From assembly GCA_965237725.1 (NCBI GenBank), contig OZ250151.1, positions 3,497,283 to 3,561,282 of the forward strand: a DNA stretch of 64,000 nt, written 5' to 3'. The position numbers and the translations under genes are program-made. Each line of letters starts with the position of its first letter. Positions within the stretch are counted from its first letter, which is position 1. Under the pieces are notes generated by a model. That model was not told the DNA's origin. It saw only the letters and a list, made by a program, of their open reading frames with translations, and made no database searches. Source of the DNA: Candidatus Spongiihabitans sp. Its GTDB lineage: Bacteria; Pseudomonadota; Gammaproteobacteria; Arenicellales; Poriferihabitantaceae. Below, one piece after another: positions 2,547 through 63,600 of this stretch.

Positions 2547-2647
2547 AATCTGTTGCTCATTAGCGAAATTCCGAGTTAAAATTAATCGTGTCGAAGGAAT
2601 AAACCTATTATTTAACCTTACTTTCGCTGATTCGCGAGGATGAATTA

Positions 2648-2854
2648 ATGCCCAAAATCACTAAAAACCAAATTGCACGCCGCAAAGCGCTTAAAACAAT
2701 GGCAATCGGTGGAGCCGCAGCGACTACTGCCAAGGAGCTTCCCGAACGCTGGGGAAAACCCGTAATTGATGGCGTCCTGTTACCCGCCCATGCGAAAATG
2801 AGTGGAAAAGGAAAAGGAAAAGGGAAAGGAGAACAACCAGAAGAAGGAAGTTAG
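2648..2854 (+). CDS. small exported peptide with a Tat-like leader and a (GK)n core
   Basis: 68-aa ORF with a GAGGA Shine-Dalgarno about 8 nt upstream. Contains RRKALK plus a hydrophobic stretch, then LPERWGKPVIDGVLLPAHA, then the tail KMSGKGKGKGKGEQPEEGS. The leader block is paralogous to the N-terminus of the 38278..39027 protein. Confidence 0.6.
   Translation: MPKITKNQIARRKALKTMAIGGAAATTAKELPERWGKPVIDGVLLPAHAKMSGKGKGKGKGEQPEEGS
2804..2830 (+). repeat. hexanucleotide tandem repeat (GGAAAA-like) encoding GKGKGKGKG
   Basis: The DNA reads gga aaa gga aaa gga aaa ggg aaa gga in frame with the 2648..2854 ORF. Confidence 0.9.
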
Positions 2855-34445: not shown

Positions 34446-36068
34446 ATGAACACAATTGCCACAACAGCAGAAAAAATAGAACCAACCAAAATTACATCGG
34501 AAAATGAAATCTGGTGTATGACAACGACAATCGCGGAACTTGAAAGCGAAGGGATGTTAATGGTGCGGATTGAGGGCAAACAAATCGCTCTGTTTAAAAC
34601 AAAGGAAGGTGTTCGAGCCTGTGATAATCGATGTCCCCACGAGGGCTTTCCACTTTCTCAGGGAAGTCTTTCAGATAGCTGTACGTTGACCTGTAACTGG
34701 CACAACTGGAAATTTAATCTCGACACTGGGGATAATCTTTATGGCGGTGACCGGTTGCGCACCTATCCAGTCGAATTGCGTGGAAATGAAATCTGGGTAG
34801 ATATCAGCGATCCGCCTTATGATGAGCGTTATAAATCCATCGTCAATAGTTTGCGTGATGCATTCGAAGATCATGCCTATGATCGCATCGGCCGGGAAAT
34901 TGCACGATTGTTCAAAATTGGTGCGGATCCTCTGGATTCTCTGCGGCTCGCTATTGACTGGTCCTGGCAGCGCATGGAGTTTGGCTGGACCCATGCTTAT
35001 GCGGGAATGATGGACTGGTTAACCCTGTACGACGAGACCGACGACAAAGAGCTTAAGTTAGTCTGTTTAATGGAAAGCGTTGGCCACACGTCTTTTGACG
35101 TACTTCGAGAACCCGAATTTCCCTATACCAAGCGGACCGAGAGTTACGACCAGTCTGGATTTCTTGCGGCAATCGAAGCAGAAGACGAGGACAGCGCGGT
35201 TGCGATGATCCGCGGCGGATTAAAAGATGGTTTGGGTTTTAATGAGTTTGAATTTGGTTTCAGCCATGGGGCTCTAGCTCACTATAATGGTTTTGGTCAT
35301 TCGCTGATTTACGTTTCCAAGGCGGGTGGTTTGATTGAACGTCTCGGAAGTCAGGTTGCAGCGCCATTGTTACTGTCATTGGTGCGGGAACTGATTTATT
35401 CGCCCAGAGAAAATAAAATCCCCGAGTTCAGGCATTATGATACGGCGTTGCAGAAATGGGGTAATCATGACGGCACTGAACCAGATAAAGCGCTCTGGTT
35501 TAAGTTGGGTATAAATAAGGCCCTGGACGCTACGGTAAGTTGCAGTGGAGCGCCTCCAGAGTCAATTTACAGCGAACTGCTGCTGGCAAATGCAGTGAAT
35601 ATGCTCAGATTCGATCTTTCCCAACAGCAGAAAGTACATGTCAGCATTTCGGGTAATGTAGGCTGGCTGGACTTTACCCATGGCCTGACTTTTGCCAATG
35701 CAGTTAGAAAGCAATGCACGCGTTTTCCTGAACTATGGCCCAATGGACTATTACAAATGGCCTGTTTCAGTGGCCGCAATGCTGCATTTACAACAGCTAA
35801 AAACGATTTGGATCAATGGAAAATAGACCATACAAATGGAGAATTCGATAAATTAATTCAGGGCTTGTTCGATCACGGACAGGATGAATATATCGTTTCG
35901 GTACATTTGCTGAAAACTGCATTGGCGGTGCGGGAAGAAATTCAGGCATTGGATTTCGATGATGAAATTCTTGGCGCTACACTCAACCGATTTTTTAACT
36001 CTCCGTTAAAACGCAAACAGGCGCAGCGGACGGCCTATCAGTCTTTACAATTTGTTTCCAAAGAATAA
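34446..36068 (+). CDS. Rieske [2Fe-2S] domain protein with a ~400-aa uncharacterised C-terminal region
   Basis: Rieske ligand motifs CPHEGFPL (CxH) and CNWHNWKF (CxxH) lie near the N-terminus. I do not recognise the remainder. Confidence 0.75.
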   Translation: MNTIATTAEKIEPTKITSENEIWCMTTTIAELESEGMLMVRIEGKQIALFKTKEGVRACDNRCPHEGFPLSQGSLSDSCTLTCNWHNWKFNLDTGDNLYGGDRLRTYPVELRGNEIWVDISDPPYDERYKSIVNSLRDAFEDHAYDRIGREIARLFKIGADPLDSLRLAIDWSWQRMEFGWTHAYAGMMDWLTLYDETDDKELKLVCLMESVGHTSFDVLREPEFPYTKRTESYDQSGFLAAIEAEDEDSAVAMIRGGLKDGLGFNEFEFGFSHGALAHYNGFGHSLIYVSKAGGLIERLGSQVAAPLLLSLVRELIYSPRENKIPEFRHYDTALQKWGNHDGTEPDKALWFKLGINKALDATVSCSGAPPESIYSELLLANAVNMLRFDLSQQQKVHVSISGNVGWLDFTHGLTFANAVRKQCTRFPELWPNGLLQMACFSGRNAAFTTAKNDLDQWKIDHTNGEFDKLIQGLFDHGQDEYIVSVHLLKTALAVREEIQALDFDDEILGATLNRFFNSPLKRKQAQRTAYQSLQFVSKE

Positions 36069-36088: not shown

Positions 36089-37117
36089 TCAAACGATATC
36101 CGTGTTCAATAAACTGGCATCCCAGTTGTCTGGGTCGGTTAAATCAACGCCATTGATATTTTGAAAACTTAATCTTTGGGTATTGAAATTAGTTAGCAAA
36201 TAGGGGCGCTGGGCTGTTTCTATTTCGATGGATACTGCAAATTGGTTTTCCGTCAAAAGTTCAAGTAGGGATGCTGGGATTGCAACCGAGGATATTGCGA
36301 TTGGATTGTGTCTTATAGCTTTAACAATATATTCAACCACTGCGGCGTAAGTTTCATCTGTATCTGCGCTCAGTTGCAGAATACATATCGTATTGGAAGT
36401 TCGATTTCTTCCCAGAATAGCGTAACCACATAATTCCGAATTATCAGCATAAATTACCCGATACTCGCAGCCCGGATTCAATAGACGCCACTTAAAAAAT
36501 TCAGCAGTTTTATATGTGGTTGCAGGGTAAGGGTCGGATTGAACTTGACAATAATGAGCTAACTCATTTTCGCGTAATGGGCCGCTGGATAGTCTAATCC
36601 CCAAAGCTTTAGAAGCTGCACTGGGCAATTGATCCAGATCACTAAAAGGTAAGCCTTGTTTCATCGCACCTCCAGACCCAGATTTGTAATATATATCCCA
36701 CGGTCCAACGGTGAGCCAGTTACGCCGTTGGGATAATCCTGCGACAACAGGCCCAGGGCTGAGATTTATTCCAAAGTCGAATTTTTGCTCCAAAGCCAAT
36801 TCGAACAAGGCATCTGTCATTTTACTCACCAGGCCTCTGCCTTCGTAAGATTCCCGTACCACGGTGCCACCAAAACAGGCCAGCTTTTTTGGTTCTAAAG
36901 ACGCGCCAATTTTCCACTCCAGACCATAGGCATTACGAGTACCCACTACCTCTCCACTGTCTATGGCAACAACAACGAGGGGTTGATCAGAAACCGGATT
37001 TGCAATGTGCTTCCATTTAAATATCTGAGCAAGGCGCTGGGGCGTGGCGCTGGATAGGCGTTGGTATAAGATCAGAAGATCTTCCAGGTAACGAATATGA
37101 AATGGAACAATTTCCAT
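36089..37117 (-). CDS. GNAT-fold acyltransferase-like protein (two-lobed)
   Basis: VVRESYEGRGLVSKM fits the GNAT acyl-CoA-binding R/Q-x-x-G-x-G/A motif. It is the last gene of the 39027->36089 minus-strand cluster. Confidence 0.55.
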   Translation of the reverse strand: MEIVPFHIRYLEDLLILYQRLSSATPQRLAQIFKWKHIANPVSDQPLVVVAIDSGEVVGTRNAYGLEWKIGASLEPKKLACFGGTVVRESYEGRGLVSKMTDALFELALEQKFDFGINLSPGPVVAGLSQRRNWLTVGPWDIYYKSGSGGAMKQGLPFSDLDQLPSAASKALGIRLSSGPLRENELAHYCQVQSDPYPATTYKTAEFFKWRLLNPGCEYRVIYADNSELCGYAILGRNRTSNTICILQLSADTDETYAAVVEYIVKAIRHNPIAISSVAIPASLLELLTENQFAVSIEIETAQRPYLLTNFNTQRLSFQNINGVDLTDPDNWDASLLNTDIV

Positions 37118-37154
37118 AATGTCAGAAATTAACGTTTACGCTATGGTTTAGCAG

Positions 37155-38207
37155 CTATATTTTTAGTCGTTGGAAACCACCCCAATTTTCCAGTGGTTCA
37201 TAATTTTCTGATTCCAGTTGCAGGTCTTTTATAATCAGGCCAATCATGTCTTCGATAAGTTGGTATTTTAGGTTGCCCGAATATTCTGGCGTCATCGCCG
37301 GGCCACGATTACATTCGATAAGCCAGGGCTGCATGTTGCTATCGATCATCATATCCAGACCAATCAATTCGAAGCACATACGTGGGTCACCTAATAACTT
37401 ATTTGTTGTTGCCTGTAATGGTTCAGTGATGGAATTGAGGGTATCTATAAGGATTTTCTCAATTTGCGCCCATGTATTGGATCCGGCGGTTGTTTTTGAC
37501 GCATAGGATTGCCAATATTCAATGGTGCGACAATGAATCTCGGCGTCATAGTCCGGGTGGGTGGATTGGACCCCTGAATTGGTGTTGTACATGTAGTCAC
37601 TGACCAAAGGATCGTGTCCCGGTTCATAGGGAATGACACACAAGTCGGTACAACCTTCATTATATAAATAGGCGGTTAATGGATTGGTATTGACGATCAG
37701 AAGATACAGCCGAAGATTGTATTTACAGCCGTCAATCAAATGAACGTCATCGAGATATTCCTGTACCAGCCATTCCCCCGAGATCGGCATTTCTGACACA
37801 TCATTAACCCGTCTGATATATCTTCCCCAGGATCCACCTCTTGGTTTTATTAGCCATTGACCGCAGTCAAATATTTTCGAGATATCATCCTTTTGATCGG
37901 GCCAAAGATAGCTTTTTGGGAAATATCGCGGAAAATTGTCTTTATCGTGATTATTAGAATAGGCGTTGGAGAGATTTTGAAACAGCGACCACTTGTTGGT
38001 CAGTACAGATATGCCAGGAATATGGTTAATTCTCCGACCGGTAGGGATATGTTTGTAAAAATCCCGGGGTGGTTCTTTGTCGTTGTACCAGAGAATATCC
38101 CAATCGGGTGTTTCAACCTGAATTACGCCGGCGTTTTTGAAACCCTGGATGACAACCTGTGCGGATGGGTCGGATACAGGGCCGACAAATCCAAACTTTG
38201 TTGCCAT
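37155..38207 (-). CDS. tubulin-tyrosine-ligase (TTL/TTLL)-family ATP-grasp enzyme
   Basis: Four serial TTL-family blocks are present: RINHIPGISVLTNKWSLFQNL, WLIKPRGGSWGRYI, VQEYLDDVHLIDGCKYNLRLYLLIV and CFELIGLDMMIDSNMQPWLIECNRGPAM. Confidence 0.8.
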   Translation of the reverse strand: MATKFGFVGPVSDPSAQVVIQGFKNAGVIQVETPDWDILWYNDKEPPRDFYKHIPTGRRINHIPGISVLTNKWSLFQNLSNAYSNNHDKDNFPRYFPKSYLWPDQKDDISKIFDCGQWLIKPRGGSWGRYIRRVNDVSEMPISGEWLVQEYLDDVHLIDGCKYNLRLYLLIVNTNPLTAYLYNEGCTDLCVIPYEPGHDPLVSDYMYNTNSGVQSTHPDYDAEIHCRTIEYWQSYASKTTAGSNTWAQIEKILIDTLNSITEPLQATTNKLLGDPRMCFELIGLDMMIDSNMQPWLIECNRGPAMTPEYSGNLKYQLIEDMIGLIIKDLQLESENYEPLENWGGFQRLKI

Positions 38208-38277
38208 GAAGTTTGTTAGTTAGAAACAAATTCGCATGTTTTGGGTTGTACCAAAAGTAGATCAAATTGTGATCGGG

Positions 38278-39027
38278 CTAGGGGGTCACTTTTACTATAA
38301 TTTTTGAGCCCATAGAATCGCCGCAGCCGGGAACACAGATAAATTGATCTGTCGGCACAAGGTTGGCGGTAAACTTTATACTTTTGCAAGATTTATTTCC
38401 GTTGTCCTCATTAAAAATATCGAATGCTCCCGTTACGGTCATTGCATCAGGGTCATACTCCATACTGAATAGGTCCACCCTCTCCTGATCATCTTCAATG
38501 TCAATACTCTCATCAATTCTCAAAATCGATGTGTCCACGAGTTTATTGTCTGGCAGGAGGGTAGAGCTTGTCTGGCCAGTGCATTCCTGAAACCCACCGG
38601 TAGTACTAAAACAGATATCGACGTCACCATTTTGGAGGATTCGAAATATGACAATAATGTTTATTTTATTATCCTGGCAGGCAGACTCACCCACATCATT
38701 GTGATAGCTGTCCAGTGCTGAGGCGGTTGGGATGACACTTTCCAGTGTAGCTGGTATAAGCCCTTCCAGCAGGGTATTGCCTTCCCACCATTTGGAATTA
38801 TCAGCCATATCGATAGCTTCAGTTGTAAATATGCCTAGAGGTGACATCATGGCATGAGCAGGCAGAAATACCGTATCAACAACAGGTTTTCGCCAGGTTT
38901 CTGGCAAAGCCTGGCTGCCCGCCACTAATCCGCCAGAAGCAACCAGCGACTTAAGCGCTGTACGTCGGTGGATATTTGGTGTGGTATTGGATTTCCCGAA
39001 TATTTTGTCTTTATCGATATTTCTCAT
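38278..39027 (-). CDS. exported hypothetical protein with the Tat-like leader shared with the 2648..2854 peptide
   Basis: HRRTALKSLVASGGLVAGSQALPETWRKPVVDTVFLPAHAMMS aligns ungapped with the small peptide's leader. The mature part is about 190 aa with 6 Cys and no family I recognise. Confidence 0.65.
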   Translation of the reverse strand: MRNIDKDKIFGKSNTTPNIHRRTALKSLVASGGLVAGSQALPETWRKPVVDTVFLPAHAMMSPLGIFTTEAIDMADNSKWWEGNTLLEGLIPATLESVIPTASALDSYHNDVGESACQDNKINIIVIFRILQNGDVDICFSTTGGFQECTGQTSSTLLPDNKLVDTSILRIDESIDIEDDQERVDLFSMEYDPDAMTVTGAFDIFNEDNGNKSCKSIKFTANLVPTDQFICVPGCGDSMGSKIIVKVTP

Positions 39028-56103: not shown

Positions 56104-56129
56104 TTCGTTTTTCTCTAATCCTCTTCGTC

Positions 56130-56168
56130 GGCCCTCTCCATCGGCCCGCTCCATCAGCCCTCTCCATC
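56130..56168. repeat. 13-bp tandem repeat x3 (GGCCCTCTCCATC-like) between zapA and 6S RNA
   Basis: Three contiguous units: ggccctctccatc / ggcccgctccatc / agccctctccatc. Confidence 0.85.
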
Positions 56169-56194
56169 ACCCCTTCGGCTTTTTAGTTTTCTCT

Positions 56195-56405
56195 GGTACA
56201 CTTCACTTTGGTATTACCTGCGGTGTTCGAGTTGTTCTCCGAATCCCTTAGAACCTAATATTTATACTCGGGTGCTGTTATGAATGACCGGCGTGTATGA
56301 CCCCAGCCTGGCTGGTGCGAATCCCAAAGTTATTCTTTGTACCCACTTGGACCTCCTTGGTTCAAGGTAAAGTGAGCATACGGCACTCGCGGGTAATGCT
56401 TTTTA
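56195..56405 (+). ncRNA. ssrS: 6S RNA (SsrS)
   Basis: A non-coding gap lies in the conserved zapA-ssrS-ygfA position. The 3' part, ccttggttcaagg...cggcactcgcgggtaatgc, resembles E. coli 6S (CCUUGAACCAAGGGUUCAAGG...GCCUGCGGCGGCAUC). The 5' gtattacctgcg can pair with the 3' cgcgggtaatgc. An internal hairpin CCAGCC/GGCTGG is present. A T-run follows the closing helix. The ends are approximate. Confidence 0.7.
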
Positions 56406-60649: not shown

Positions 60650-63600
60650 ATGAAACCAAATTGGAAGTATTGCCGAATATGGGTGGCTTCAGTTTTTCGA
60701 GTATCTTCTCGAAGAAAAAATTCGAATGGTCGACTCTCCCATCCAATTGAACAAGTAGGAAAAACGACCTTAGGTGGGGCAATCTTCTTAGTTTTCATGG
60801 GAATGGGAGCATTAATCTGGCAGTCCCACGTTACTGGGCAAGTTTCCCAACCCATTAATTCCGCGCCCTGGGTTGGTGAAATAACGGGAATTTTTAAACT
60901 AGACACTGATGGCCAACTAGTCAATCATTTCAAGCTTGGTGAAGAAATTGAAGACAGAGACATAGATTGTTCACCGCTGGAAGAATGGCAAGAGAAAGTG
61001 AAGTATCGGAAAGGGGATTTTGTACAACATAATGGCAATGCCTGGCGGGCCAATAAAAAAACCAAGAAGGAACCAAAGGCGGGCGGAAAGGGGTCAAAAG
61101 GTCCCAAGGGATCGAAAGGATCCAGGGGATCGAAAGGTTCCAAAGGTTCCAAGGGTTCCAAGGGTTCTAAAGGTTCCAAAGGTTCCAAAGGTTCCAAGGG
61201 TTCTAAAGGTTCGAAAGGTAATGGCTCGAAAGGCAAAGGTTCGAACTGGGCGTTACTAGGCCCTTGTGCATCCGACTCAAACGATAAGTCAACTGGTGTG
61301 ATTGGGCTAATTGACGACGAATCCATATTGTGGGCCTACCTTCACGATCACCGTTTATATCAAATTAATACCGATAGCGAACAAATTACCGAAATTATCT
61401 TCCCCGATCCACCCCAGGACGGTAATTTCGATTGTGCTGATTTAAATCTCTGGGATGCTTCAGAAAAATATAAGAAAAACGATTTTATCGAATTCATCGG
61501 ACATGCCTGGGAAGCCAAAAAATCAACCTCTAAAGAACCCGATTTGTCATCGGATAAATATTGGAAAGATTTAGGAGAGTGCATAGCGGATGTTAACTAT
61601 GCGGGACACCTCATAACCGATGGACAAGTGCTGTGGCTAGCACGAGGGAGGCAAATTATTCGCTATGAGAATGCAATAGCGGAATCGTTTGAAACGATAA
61701 ACCCAGTCAATGCCATCACCTGGGATGAAATCAGTCAGCAATTGTGGGTTGCATCCGGTACAACTTTCGAGCGCAGAATTGCGAATGGAACTATTGTCGA
61801 TGTAGATTCCTTGACTAACGGCCCAGTAACCGCCATGGGTGTGGATCTTCGCAATGGTTATTTATGGCTTAGCACAAATTCAGGAGTGTTATCACAATAC
61901 GATGCGAATAGTACTTTCATTGGTAATCTGATTTTGCCAATGGGTGTGGTCGAGCATATTATTTCTGATAATCAGGGTGGGTTGTGGGTAGCGGACGCGA
62001 GCAAGGTTATCAACCTGGACGAATTCGGAAACATTGTGCAAATTCTCGAACCCGTACTGGGCGGTAGTGCCATTAGAGATATTACAGTCGCAGCAGACGG
62101 TAGTTTGTGGATAGCCACTGCAGATCAACTTTGGCGCTACGATGACGTCCAAGGTCTAACCCAAGAATGGGTAGCCCCGAGTGCAAACCCGATTATCGTA
62201 AATGTTCTTTCACAACAAGTTAGCCATAACAATCCGCCAGAAATTACTTCGGACCCTATTACCGACGCAATCCTTAACGACAATTACAGCTACGATGTTA
62301 TAGCGACAGATGCAGATGGAGATGATCTGGAGTTTCAATTAACCGCCGCACCTGTTGGAATGACCATCGATGAATTCACAGGTTCAATCTTATGGCTTGC
62401 GGACAGCATAGGCGACTTTGATGTAACTGTTGAAGTATTCGATACCCGAGGTGGGGTTGATAGTCAAAGTTTTACGGTTAGCGTCATCGATCCAGATACC
62501 ACGCCGCCAGTCATTACCCTGACCAGCCCCCAGAACGGACTCCTGACCAATAATTCAGTACTCTCCATCGTGGGATTCATAGACGAGATCGCCACGTTAT
62601 CGCTAAATGGTTCGCCCCTTTCCCAAAATCCAGATTTGTCGTTTGGCGCTACCGTTAGTTTGGTTGAAGGGATCAATAATTTTGTGCTCAATGGGGTAGA
62701 CCCTTCTGGAAATTCCAGTGATGTTTTATTCAGCGTTACATTAGACAGCATCGCGCCACAAATTGTGGTCAGCTCACCCAGCGATGGCGATTTAACTAAT
62801 GAGGAAAATCAATCCGTTGAAGGTAGCTTATCGGAATCCGCTGTACTCACCATCAATGATCAGTCGGTTACAGTTCATCCATCATTAGATTTTACAAGCG
62901 CCCTTACCCTAATCGAAGGCAACAACACCATAACCCTTGTTGCTACTGATCCCGTTGGCAATCAATCCACCACAAACCTATCCGTTACCTTAGATAGCAT
63001 TGCACCAGAAATCACTAACTTAGTCCCAATATCGGGTTCGTTTACCAATATTCCAAACCAAACTATTTCTGGTCAACTAAGCGAACCCGGCAGCGTAACC
63101 GTTAATGGTAATGCAGCGACGGTAAACAAAGATGACTCATTTGTGTTTACCCCTTTTGCGTTAACCGAAGGGGCCAATCTGATCGATATCACAGCAACGG
63201 ACTCAGCGGGAAATTTTACTGATGCTCAGATTAACATTACCCTAGATACAGTAGCGCCGGTTATACAACTCGATGCGCCAAACAACAACGTTCAATTTAA
63301 TAATCCAGATGTTCTGTTTGAAGGCACTGTTAGCGAGCTTGTCAATCTAACTATTAATGGTGATGCCATAGCCTTAGAAAATGATAATTCATTTAGCGCA
63401 ACCCTGACCCTGTTAGAAGGGGATAACAGTGGGGACATTGTGGCCACCGATTTCGCGGGAAACCCAACGACGATTACCCGTCAAATCAATATCGATTCGA
63501 TCCCCCCAGCAGCCATTGATCAGGGCTTGGTCAATCGGGGTAATCCCACTAATGAAATTGTTATGGTCAGTGGTTTGCCCGGGGCCGCAGAACCCGGAAG

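Follow-up and report, generated by a model that had tools for sequence, protein, structure and literature searches.

In typical Tat signals the A-x-A site lies roughly 20–30 residues after the twin arginine, and the pathway carries folded complexes, hitchhiking being known for hydrogenase and DmsAB. In serine-rich-repeat glycoproteins, an extended signal peptide of the KxYKxGKxW type is combined with accessory Sec export. In bacteria, SET proteins often act as exported effectors, as exemplified by Legionella RomA and Chlamydia NUE; however, we know of no SET enzyme that tailors a ribosomal peptide bound for export, and none was found in the literature. RiPP precursors with leaders of the NHLP and Nif11 types form families which were reportedly described by Haft et al. 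in 2010.

By analogy with these systems, the product of one small gene of the window (the whole stretch of DNA that was analysed, 64,000 nucleotides in length) appears to work most like a precursor of a RiPP-type or secreted modified peptide, its leader doubling as a Tat signal. The gene lies on the + strand at positions 2648–2854 and encodes 68 aa followed by a stop codon (MPKITKNQIARRKALKTMAIGGAAATTAKELPERWGKPVIDGVLLPAHAKMSGKGKGKGKGEQPEEGS); it was recognised in the ORF listing, by its leader homologues and by an orthologue on the metagenomic contig L119. A Shine-Dalgarno sequence, GAGG, was found by inspection at 2636–2639 (+), with the ATG 8 nt downstream, and GGAGGG is equivalently spaced in the L119 orthologue. 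A twin-arginine motif, A-R-R-K-A-L-K (residues 10–16; 2675–2695, +), was recognised by a match to TIGR01409 and in alignment A1; it stands at the start of the leader and is missing from the description of the peptide in the initial annotation. Next comes an h-region, TMAIGGAAATTA, with K-E in addition (2696–2737, +); it is rich in Gly, Ala and Thr and by Kyte-Doolittle analysis weakly hydrophobic. The conserved block that defines the family, LPERWGKPVIDGVLLPAHA, occupies residues 31–49 (2738–2794, +) and ends in A-H-A (residues 47–49), the putative cleavage site. A cut at this site would leave a predicted mature tail of 19 aa with five lysines, KMSGKGKGKGKGEQPEEGS (2795–2851, +), whose Ser at +3 still belongs to the conserved module.

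Both the reading frame and the 19-residue remainder had been proposed in the initial annotation, and both were confirmed. The hexanucleotide tandem repeat to which it attributed the lysine run is also present: TRF reported (GGAAAA) at 2804–2830 (+), with period 6, 4.5 copies and 90% matches, at a score of 47 that falls below the default threshold of 50. The run itself had been read as (GK)5, and this detail has to be corrected, as the 4.5 units code for GKGKGKGKG, that is (GK)4G.

The window holds many spurious ORFs of approximately this size, as judged from the ORF listing. The 68-aa ORF is more than a chance frame, because over its first ~54 residues it has 1,286 homologues and because there is an orthologue whose leader dN/dS is about 0.18. 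Conservation of the frame in relatives had been proposed as a check, and it came out positive: the L119 orthologue keeps the frame and has a Shine-Dalgarno sequence of its own. By these comparisons, the ORF is a genuine gene under purifying selection. Its stop codon is followed by an intergenic space of only about 97 nt and by a convergent HutD/Ves-like gene. Simple scans revealed no promoter or terminator on the + strand around the peptide gene, no Rfam family was matched in the region searched at the locus, and RNA structure 3' of the gene is not significant (z = −0.12). AF2 predicted a helix over residues 6–28 and a disordered tail, all at low confidence, and no fold; low confidence is to be expected of a leader joined to a disordered tail. 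The proteins checked from the source genome are singletons at 90% identity, with no close relative in databases.

Residues 1–52 of the peptide make up a canonical copy of an uncurated N-terminal module of extended Tat type, with the consensus SRRxLLK-GGGA-LPExWxKPVVDSVxLPAHA/QTS (the slash marks the predicted cut). A word-indexed homology search with the peptide returned only the peptide itself. An exhaustive phmmer search of 1.84 billion representatives (clusters at 50% identity) yielded the 1,286 matches at E ≤ 1e-3; these proteins are 51 to 345 aa long and match the peptide only over about residues 3–64. A profile search gave 886 proteins, all of them named 'hypothetical' or 'Tat signal domain-containing', in which no Pfam domain was found, and Pfam and NCBIfam contain no model for the module apart from the generic Tat signal. 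Neither the LPAHA motif nor RiPPs with a Tat leader, whether combined with PqqD or with glycosyltransferases, were found to be described in the literature. To judge from these matches, the 68-aa peptide is one of a large and uncurated family, the defining feature of which is an extended leader of Tat type.

At least 118 loci in reference genomes match a DNA pattern obtained by back-translating the invariant block into IUPAC code. The hosts among the loci listed are mostly Arenicellales or uncultured Gammaproteobacteria, or else Desulfobulbaceae (Desulforhopalus, Electrothrix, Electronema, Desulfocapsa); it is common for a genome to contain several copies, some of them arranged in tandem, 3 to 4 in a row. 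Positions R11, R12, P32, W35, P38, V43, P46 and H48 are invariant in alignment A1, and the peptide has them all. RR was found upstream in 120 of the 127 genome-derived motif ORFs listed, and RR-x-h-h in 93 of 120 family members. The spacing between RR and PAHA, whose mode in the family is 39, is also 39 in the peptide. Just after PAHA, Gln occupies +1 in 74% of sequences, Thr occupies +2 in 77%, and Ser or Thr occupies +3 in 98% (118 of 120 members). Across the family the leader invariably ends in A-H-A, and the sequence beyond the leader is hypervariable, with 3 to ~340 residues family-wide; the length after PAHA in the 127 listed motif ORFs is 7 to 342 aa (median 137), and tails as short as 3 to 22 aa are found repeatedly. 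For the most part, the family consists of secreted proteins or mucin-like peptides, not of small RiPPs. With the leader HMM, the window was found to contain exactly one further member, a 249-aa protein encoded at 38278–39027 (−), which scored 66.7 bits as compared with 71.2 bits for the peptide; the next match in the window reached 10 bits.

The leader shares with Tat signals (TIGR01409/PF10518) a motif resembling S/T-R-R-x-F-L-K, an h-region that is short, weakly hydrophobic and rich in Gly and Ala, basic residues behind the h-region and an A-x-A site, and NCBI names some members 'Tat signal domain-containing'. ARRKALK of the peptide conforms to the consensus S/T-R-R-x-F-L-K. Against TIGR01409 the peptide scored 16.0 bits over residues 11–28, below the cutoff of 16.7, which is passed by its relative P0019 with 18.8; against PF10518 it scored 11.3 bits, below the cutoff of 22.7. 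The best 10-aa Kyte-Doolittle window of its h-region has a value of 1.14, compared with a family median of 1.80. Unlike Tat signals, the leaders of the family have a 19-residue block, LPExWxKPVVDSVxLPAHA, after the h-region; the c-region between the h-region and A-H-A comprises 19 to 21 residues and is highly conserved, which is atypical for a Tat signal, and A-x-A is located ~39 residues after RR. Conservation extends to +3 (QTS), and the cargo is hypervariable, being as small as 3 to 19 residues.

The NHLP and Nif11 families resemble the present one in being large and paralogous, in having a long conserved leader, hypervariable cores and multiple or tandem copies per genome, and in the use of one leader with different tailoring enzymes at different loci. 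Their sequences are unrelated, however, and the present leader ends in A-H-A rather than in Gly-Gly and brings a Tat-type export signal with it, where the other families rely on a C39-peptidase ABC exporter; moreover, many members have cargos of 100 to 340 aa, a size beyond that of classical RiPPs. Serine-rich-repeat glycoproteins likewise have a specialised extended signal peptide with additional conserved motifs, and they are Ser/Thr-rich and glycosylated in the cytoplasm before export, which fits the Thr/Pro-rich members linked to glycosyltransferases. They differ in being a Gram-positive system with huge adhesin substrates, exported by accessory SecA2/Y2 and not by Tat, and in having no SET, TTL or PqqD partners. 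With the PqqD/RRE pathways of RiPPs and with glycocins, the family has in common the PqqD-like genes beside members P0007 and P0003 and at no fewer than eight genomic loci; the locus of the 68-aa peptide differs, as no PqqD/RRE, glycosyltransferase, protease or exporter gene was found there. The layout seen in the initial annotation, a long conserved leader with a tiny core as in RiPP or secreted-peptide precursors, was borne out across the family, whereas a classical private RiPP leader was not, since the extended Tat-type signal is common to proteins of up to ~345 aa.

About 16% of the longer members have a second motif, '[ILV]xDxhhxPAHA', ~44 residues after the first one (14 of 87 longer members, as against 0.8 expected from shuffles). 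It was seen at loci L002, L017, L033, L039, L061, L063 and others, and in P0003, P0008 and P0009. This motif could mark a further site for processing or docking that bounds a pro-segment, and it hints at a dedicated recognition event.

The SET-domain gene that had been placed 101 nt upstream on the strand of the peptide is indeed there. It lies at 2094–2546 (+; an alternative TTG start is at 2049) and encodes, from ATG, 150 aa without a signal peptide; the match to PF00856 has 36.1 bits (cutoff 22.4, E 9e-9), and a 101-nt spacer separates its stop codon from the ATG of the peptide. The solved structure closest to the protein is S. pombe Set7 (5h6z, E 4e-11), further nearest solved relatives being a Plasmodium SET protein and vSET. 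Its catalytic motifs are intact, as YNHGNPAN (NH) and ELLINY (ELxxNY) align to Set7. The fold signature, NH together with ELxxNY, and the 150-aa format are shared with minimal SET methyltransferases (Set7 5h6z, PBCV-1 vSET 1n3j and bacterial effectors); the difference lies in the proposed substrate, since the known SET enzymes act on histones, on chromatin proteins or on proteins of a host.

An indexed search of 5.8 billion proteins found two members of this SET clade, the protein of the window and that of L119, and both are encoded directly upstream of a leader peptide. The peptide on L119, P0004 (63 aa), is the closest relative of the 68-aa peptide. The two SET proteins are 56% identical, with saturated dS, GC content is 45% in the window vs 59% in L119, and the outer flanks are unrelated (SDR and HutD in the window; a FrhB-like protein and an M20 peptidase in L119). 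The leaders of the two peptides are 65% identical, with dN/dS of 0.18, and a Shine-Dalgarno sequence precedes both. Their tails are not alignable and are both rich in lysine (KMSGKGKGKGKGEQPEEGS vs KMTKKMAVKKTT). The GGAAAA repeat is absent from P0004, and so is the acidic EQPEEGS end, the tail KMTKKMAVKKTT being devoid of acidic residues.

Lysine accounts for 1.0% of the mature parts of the family, where it is the second-rarest residue. In the 340 members whose tails are 12 aa or longer, the first 19 tail residues contain no lysine in 317 cases, one in 19, two in 2 and five in 2, and the two tails with five lysines are precisely those of the two SET-linked peptides. No SET gene was found at the 118 generic family loci listed, and no leader peptide downstream of 14 broader small-SET loci retrieved with a SET-motif DNA pattern. 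A metagenome scan with the SET alignment gave no match, and tblastn against plasmids and a scan of viral contigs revealed no further instance of the clade. The link between the SET gene and the peptide, which the initial annotation had suggested from adjacency, is supported by the recurrence of the pair in the divergent L119 with unrelated flanks, on two instances only. Two features used to recognise RiPPs are found at this locus: the 68-aa peptide is a short precursor in which the leader is conserved and the core varies, and a candidate tailoring enzyme stands beside it in a pairing conserved on the same two instances.

Other members of the family have other enzymes as neighbours. Clustering of the flanking ORFs of the listed loci, performed without bias, revealed no universal partner gene. 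At least 30 of the 118 listed loci have a glycosyltransferase, NTP_transf_5, PqqD or TTL gene within 4 kb; this number is a minimum, since the family gene does not stand in the middle of the 8-kb loci. Among the family loci listed, GT2 occurs at 14, a ~220-aa glycosyltransferase at nine or more, PF11397 GlcNAc-transferase at 7, GT7C/GT2_2 at 6, NTP_transf_5 at 5 and TTL at 3 (L017, L086, L118). PqqD-like genes are often accompanied by glycosyltransferases of GT2 type and by NTP_transf_5; the gene of P0007 (55 aa) directly follows a PqqD gene and is surrounded by glycosyltransferase genes, and a PqqD-domain gene lies 2 kb from P0003. The sequences of modifying enzymes which were inspected have no N-terminal signal peptide. 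Comparison of neighbourhoods showed that the predicted tail chemistry tracks the neighbouring enzyme, with Thr/Pro beside glycosyltransferases, acidic residues beside TTL and lysine beside SET.

Short tails rich in Thr, Pro and Ser are found amid genes for GlcNAc-transferases, O-FucT-like proteins, GT2 and PqqD. Mucin-like short members of this kind were seen at L073, L025, L070, L104, L057 and L134, with neighbours that include an O-fucosyltransferase-like protein (HxRRGD) and NTP_transf_5; on this evidence they are candidates for Tat-exported peptides glycosylated in the cytoplasm. A different group, observed at L008, L092, L099 and L109 (Arenicella and relatives), has the same leader and a conserved mature peptide of 61–65 aa with six cysteines, in the pattern …CVTDTTVGGPL.G…C.AACEAEA…LC…C.CDLDLP. 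The six-Cys peptide always adjoins a very large (1,200–1,700 aa), repetitive protein of surface type (neighbour cluster 6).

The second family member of the window is followed by an enzyme gene of its own. The 249-aa protein has the leader RRTALK...LPETWRKPVVDTVFLPAHAMMSP, as established by motif search and the ORF listing, and an acidic mature part of 190 aa. Immediately 3' of its gene, at 37155–38207 (−), lies a gene for a TTL-family ATP-grasp protein (PF03133, E 2.7e-43), which is polyglutamylase-like and whose closest PDB entries are TTLL7 and TTLL6, with E of about 1e-27. Together with a 342-aa GNAT-like protein downstream, the two form a three-gene cluster at 36089–39027 (−). A TTL gene stands immediately beside an acidic family member of 150–190 aa in four genomes (the window, L017, L086 and L118). 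The window thereby appears to offer a case of a bacterial TTL whose candidate substrate is linked to it genetically; no precedent for a bacterial TTL modifying a RiPP was found in the literature. The cluster is adjoined by a gene for a 540-aa Rieske-domain protein (34446–36068, +), which scored 18.9 bits against PF14407 (Frankia ribosomal peptide), where the cutoff is 48; this is probably noise.

On the sequence evidence, the 68-aa gene probably gives rise to a small peptide which is first modified and then secreted. How this might be achieved can be proposed tentatively, with somewhat less than an even chance that the full scheme is right: the precursor would consist of an extended Tat-type leader and a 19-residue Lys-rich tail, which is methylated by the SET enzyme, exported by Tat and released by cleavage at A-H-A. 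The precursor peptide would be synthesised in the cytoplasm, where the SET enzyme, having no signal peptide, would methylate lysines of the tail; since Tat export is post-translational, there would be time for this reaction. The twin-arginine leader would then carry the modified peptide over the inner membrane and be cut at the invariant LPAHA/x-x-[ST], the enzyme being signal peptidase I or else a protease dedicated to this step, so that a short cationic and possibly methylated peptide would be released into the periplasm or secreted. We infer Tat export, the position of the cleavage, methylation by SET and any function of the product from sequence. A cut at A-H-A would fall 21 residues past the h-region, an unusually large distance for signal peptidase I, and this makes both the cleavage there and the identity of the protease uncertain.

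Because only two SET–peptide pairs are known, shared ancestry is not fully separable from selection, and this lends some weight to the explanation that the peptide is an ordinary one, exported unmodified by Tat or Sec, while the SET protein has another substrate and the two genes are neighbours through co-regulation or retained ancestry. Such an explanation would agree with the lack of a similar neighbour beside other bacterial small SETs and of a modifying enzyme within 4 kb at about three quarters of the listed family loci, as well as with the tiny-tailed members P0026 and P0115, which have no visible enzyme nearby (both are on short contigs). We consider it unlikely all the same, as both members of the rare SET clade keep the peptide although their flanks are unrelated and synonymous divergence is saturated, lysine enrichment is unique to the two SET-linked tails in a family whose mature parts contain 1% Lys, and elsewhere in the family the chemistry of the tail fits the adjacent enzyme. 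The conserved pairing could also mean that the peptide is a partner of the SET protein: either a Tat hitchhiking escort, which would bring SET out with it by way of a Lys-rich tail docked in the SET substrate channel, or a pseudo-substrate regulator. It would then be natural that SET has no signal peptide and the peptide has a Tat-type one, the more so as Tat is able to move folded complexes and bacterial SETs are often exported effectors. This role seems quite improbable to us, however: the family-wide pattern is one of leader-bearing substrates beside modifying enzymes, and a tail conserved neither in length nor in sequence speaks against a specific docking interface.

It is very improbable that the gene is a decayed remnant, in which a longer member was truncated, its cargo was lost and hexamer slippage produced a tail without function. 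The low-complexity, repeat-encoded tail, the family median mature length of 137 aa and the lack of a fold predicted by AF2 would suit such a history; against them stand the low dN/dS of the leader (0.18), the Shine-Dalgarno sequence kept in both lineages, the short form kept beside SET in two divergent genomes and the recurrence of tails of 3 to 22 aa in the family, and the ~97 nt that follow the stop codon leave no room for residual cargo. The initial annotation had also remarked that the Glu-rich end resembles tails on which TTL enzymes act. Glutamylation or tyrosination of EQPEEGS by the TTL ligase of the window has hardly any probability left: although this ligase is polyglutamylase-like and TTL is associated with the leader family in four genomes, each TTL directly adjoins its own acidic member, the one in the window is 34 kb away from the 68-aa peptide, and the orthologous peptide has no acidic end. 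The link between TTL and this peptide is therefore unsupported.

Methylation by SET followed by Tat export, the reading preferred here, may be extended to the whole family, a step about which we are distinctly more doubtful. The LPAHA-type leader would then mark a widespread Gram-negative route, in which modification in the cytoplasm precedes Tat export and the tailoring enzymes are interchangeable; the SET enzyme of the present locus would be the first of its kind known to methylate lysines of a ribosomal peptide bound for secretion. Glycosyltransferases, TTL-type ligases, PqqD-assisted enzymes and the SET-domain enzyme would, on the same doubtful footing, constitute the interchangeable set. 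If this is true, a defined and genetically linked peptide substrate would become available for bacterial SET proteins, of which few native substrates are known, and over 1,000 'hypothetical' proteins would turn out to have in common a leader specialised in export and processing. The leader would link Tat transport to cytoplasmic glycosylation, TTL-type ligation and methylation, and its motif would provide a genome-mining handle for modified secreted peptides in Arenicellales, uncultured Gammaproteobacteria and Desulfobulbaceae, cable bacteria included. If it is wrong, a real small secreted peptide of Tat type would still be left, together with a new N-terminal motif family that is worth curating.

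Several features were observed in the distal part of the window. A 9-nt tandem repeat, AAAGGTTCC, is present in 13.7 copies at 61088–61245, nested in a 36-nt period, and codes for a low-complexity protein, (EPL/PFEPL)n, within an ORF at 60925–61326 (−). The genes pepP-ubiH-visC are found at 50–54 kb of the window and, taken with the 6S RNA gene downstream, identify the source as a gammaproteobacterium. A gene for 6S RNA (RF00013, 65.9 bits) lies at 56212–56399 (+), in the usual zapA-ssrS-ygfA arrangement, and is preceded by a 13-nt tandem repeat at 56120–56174.
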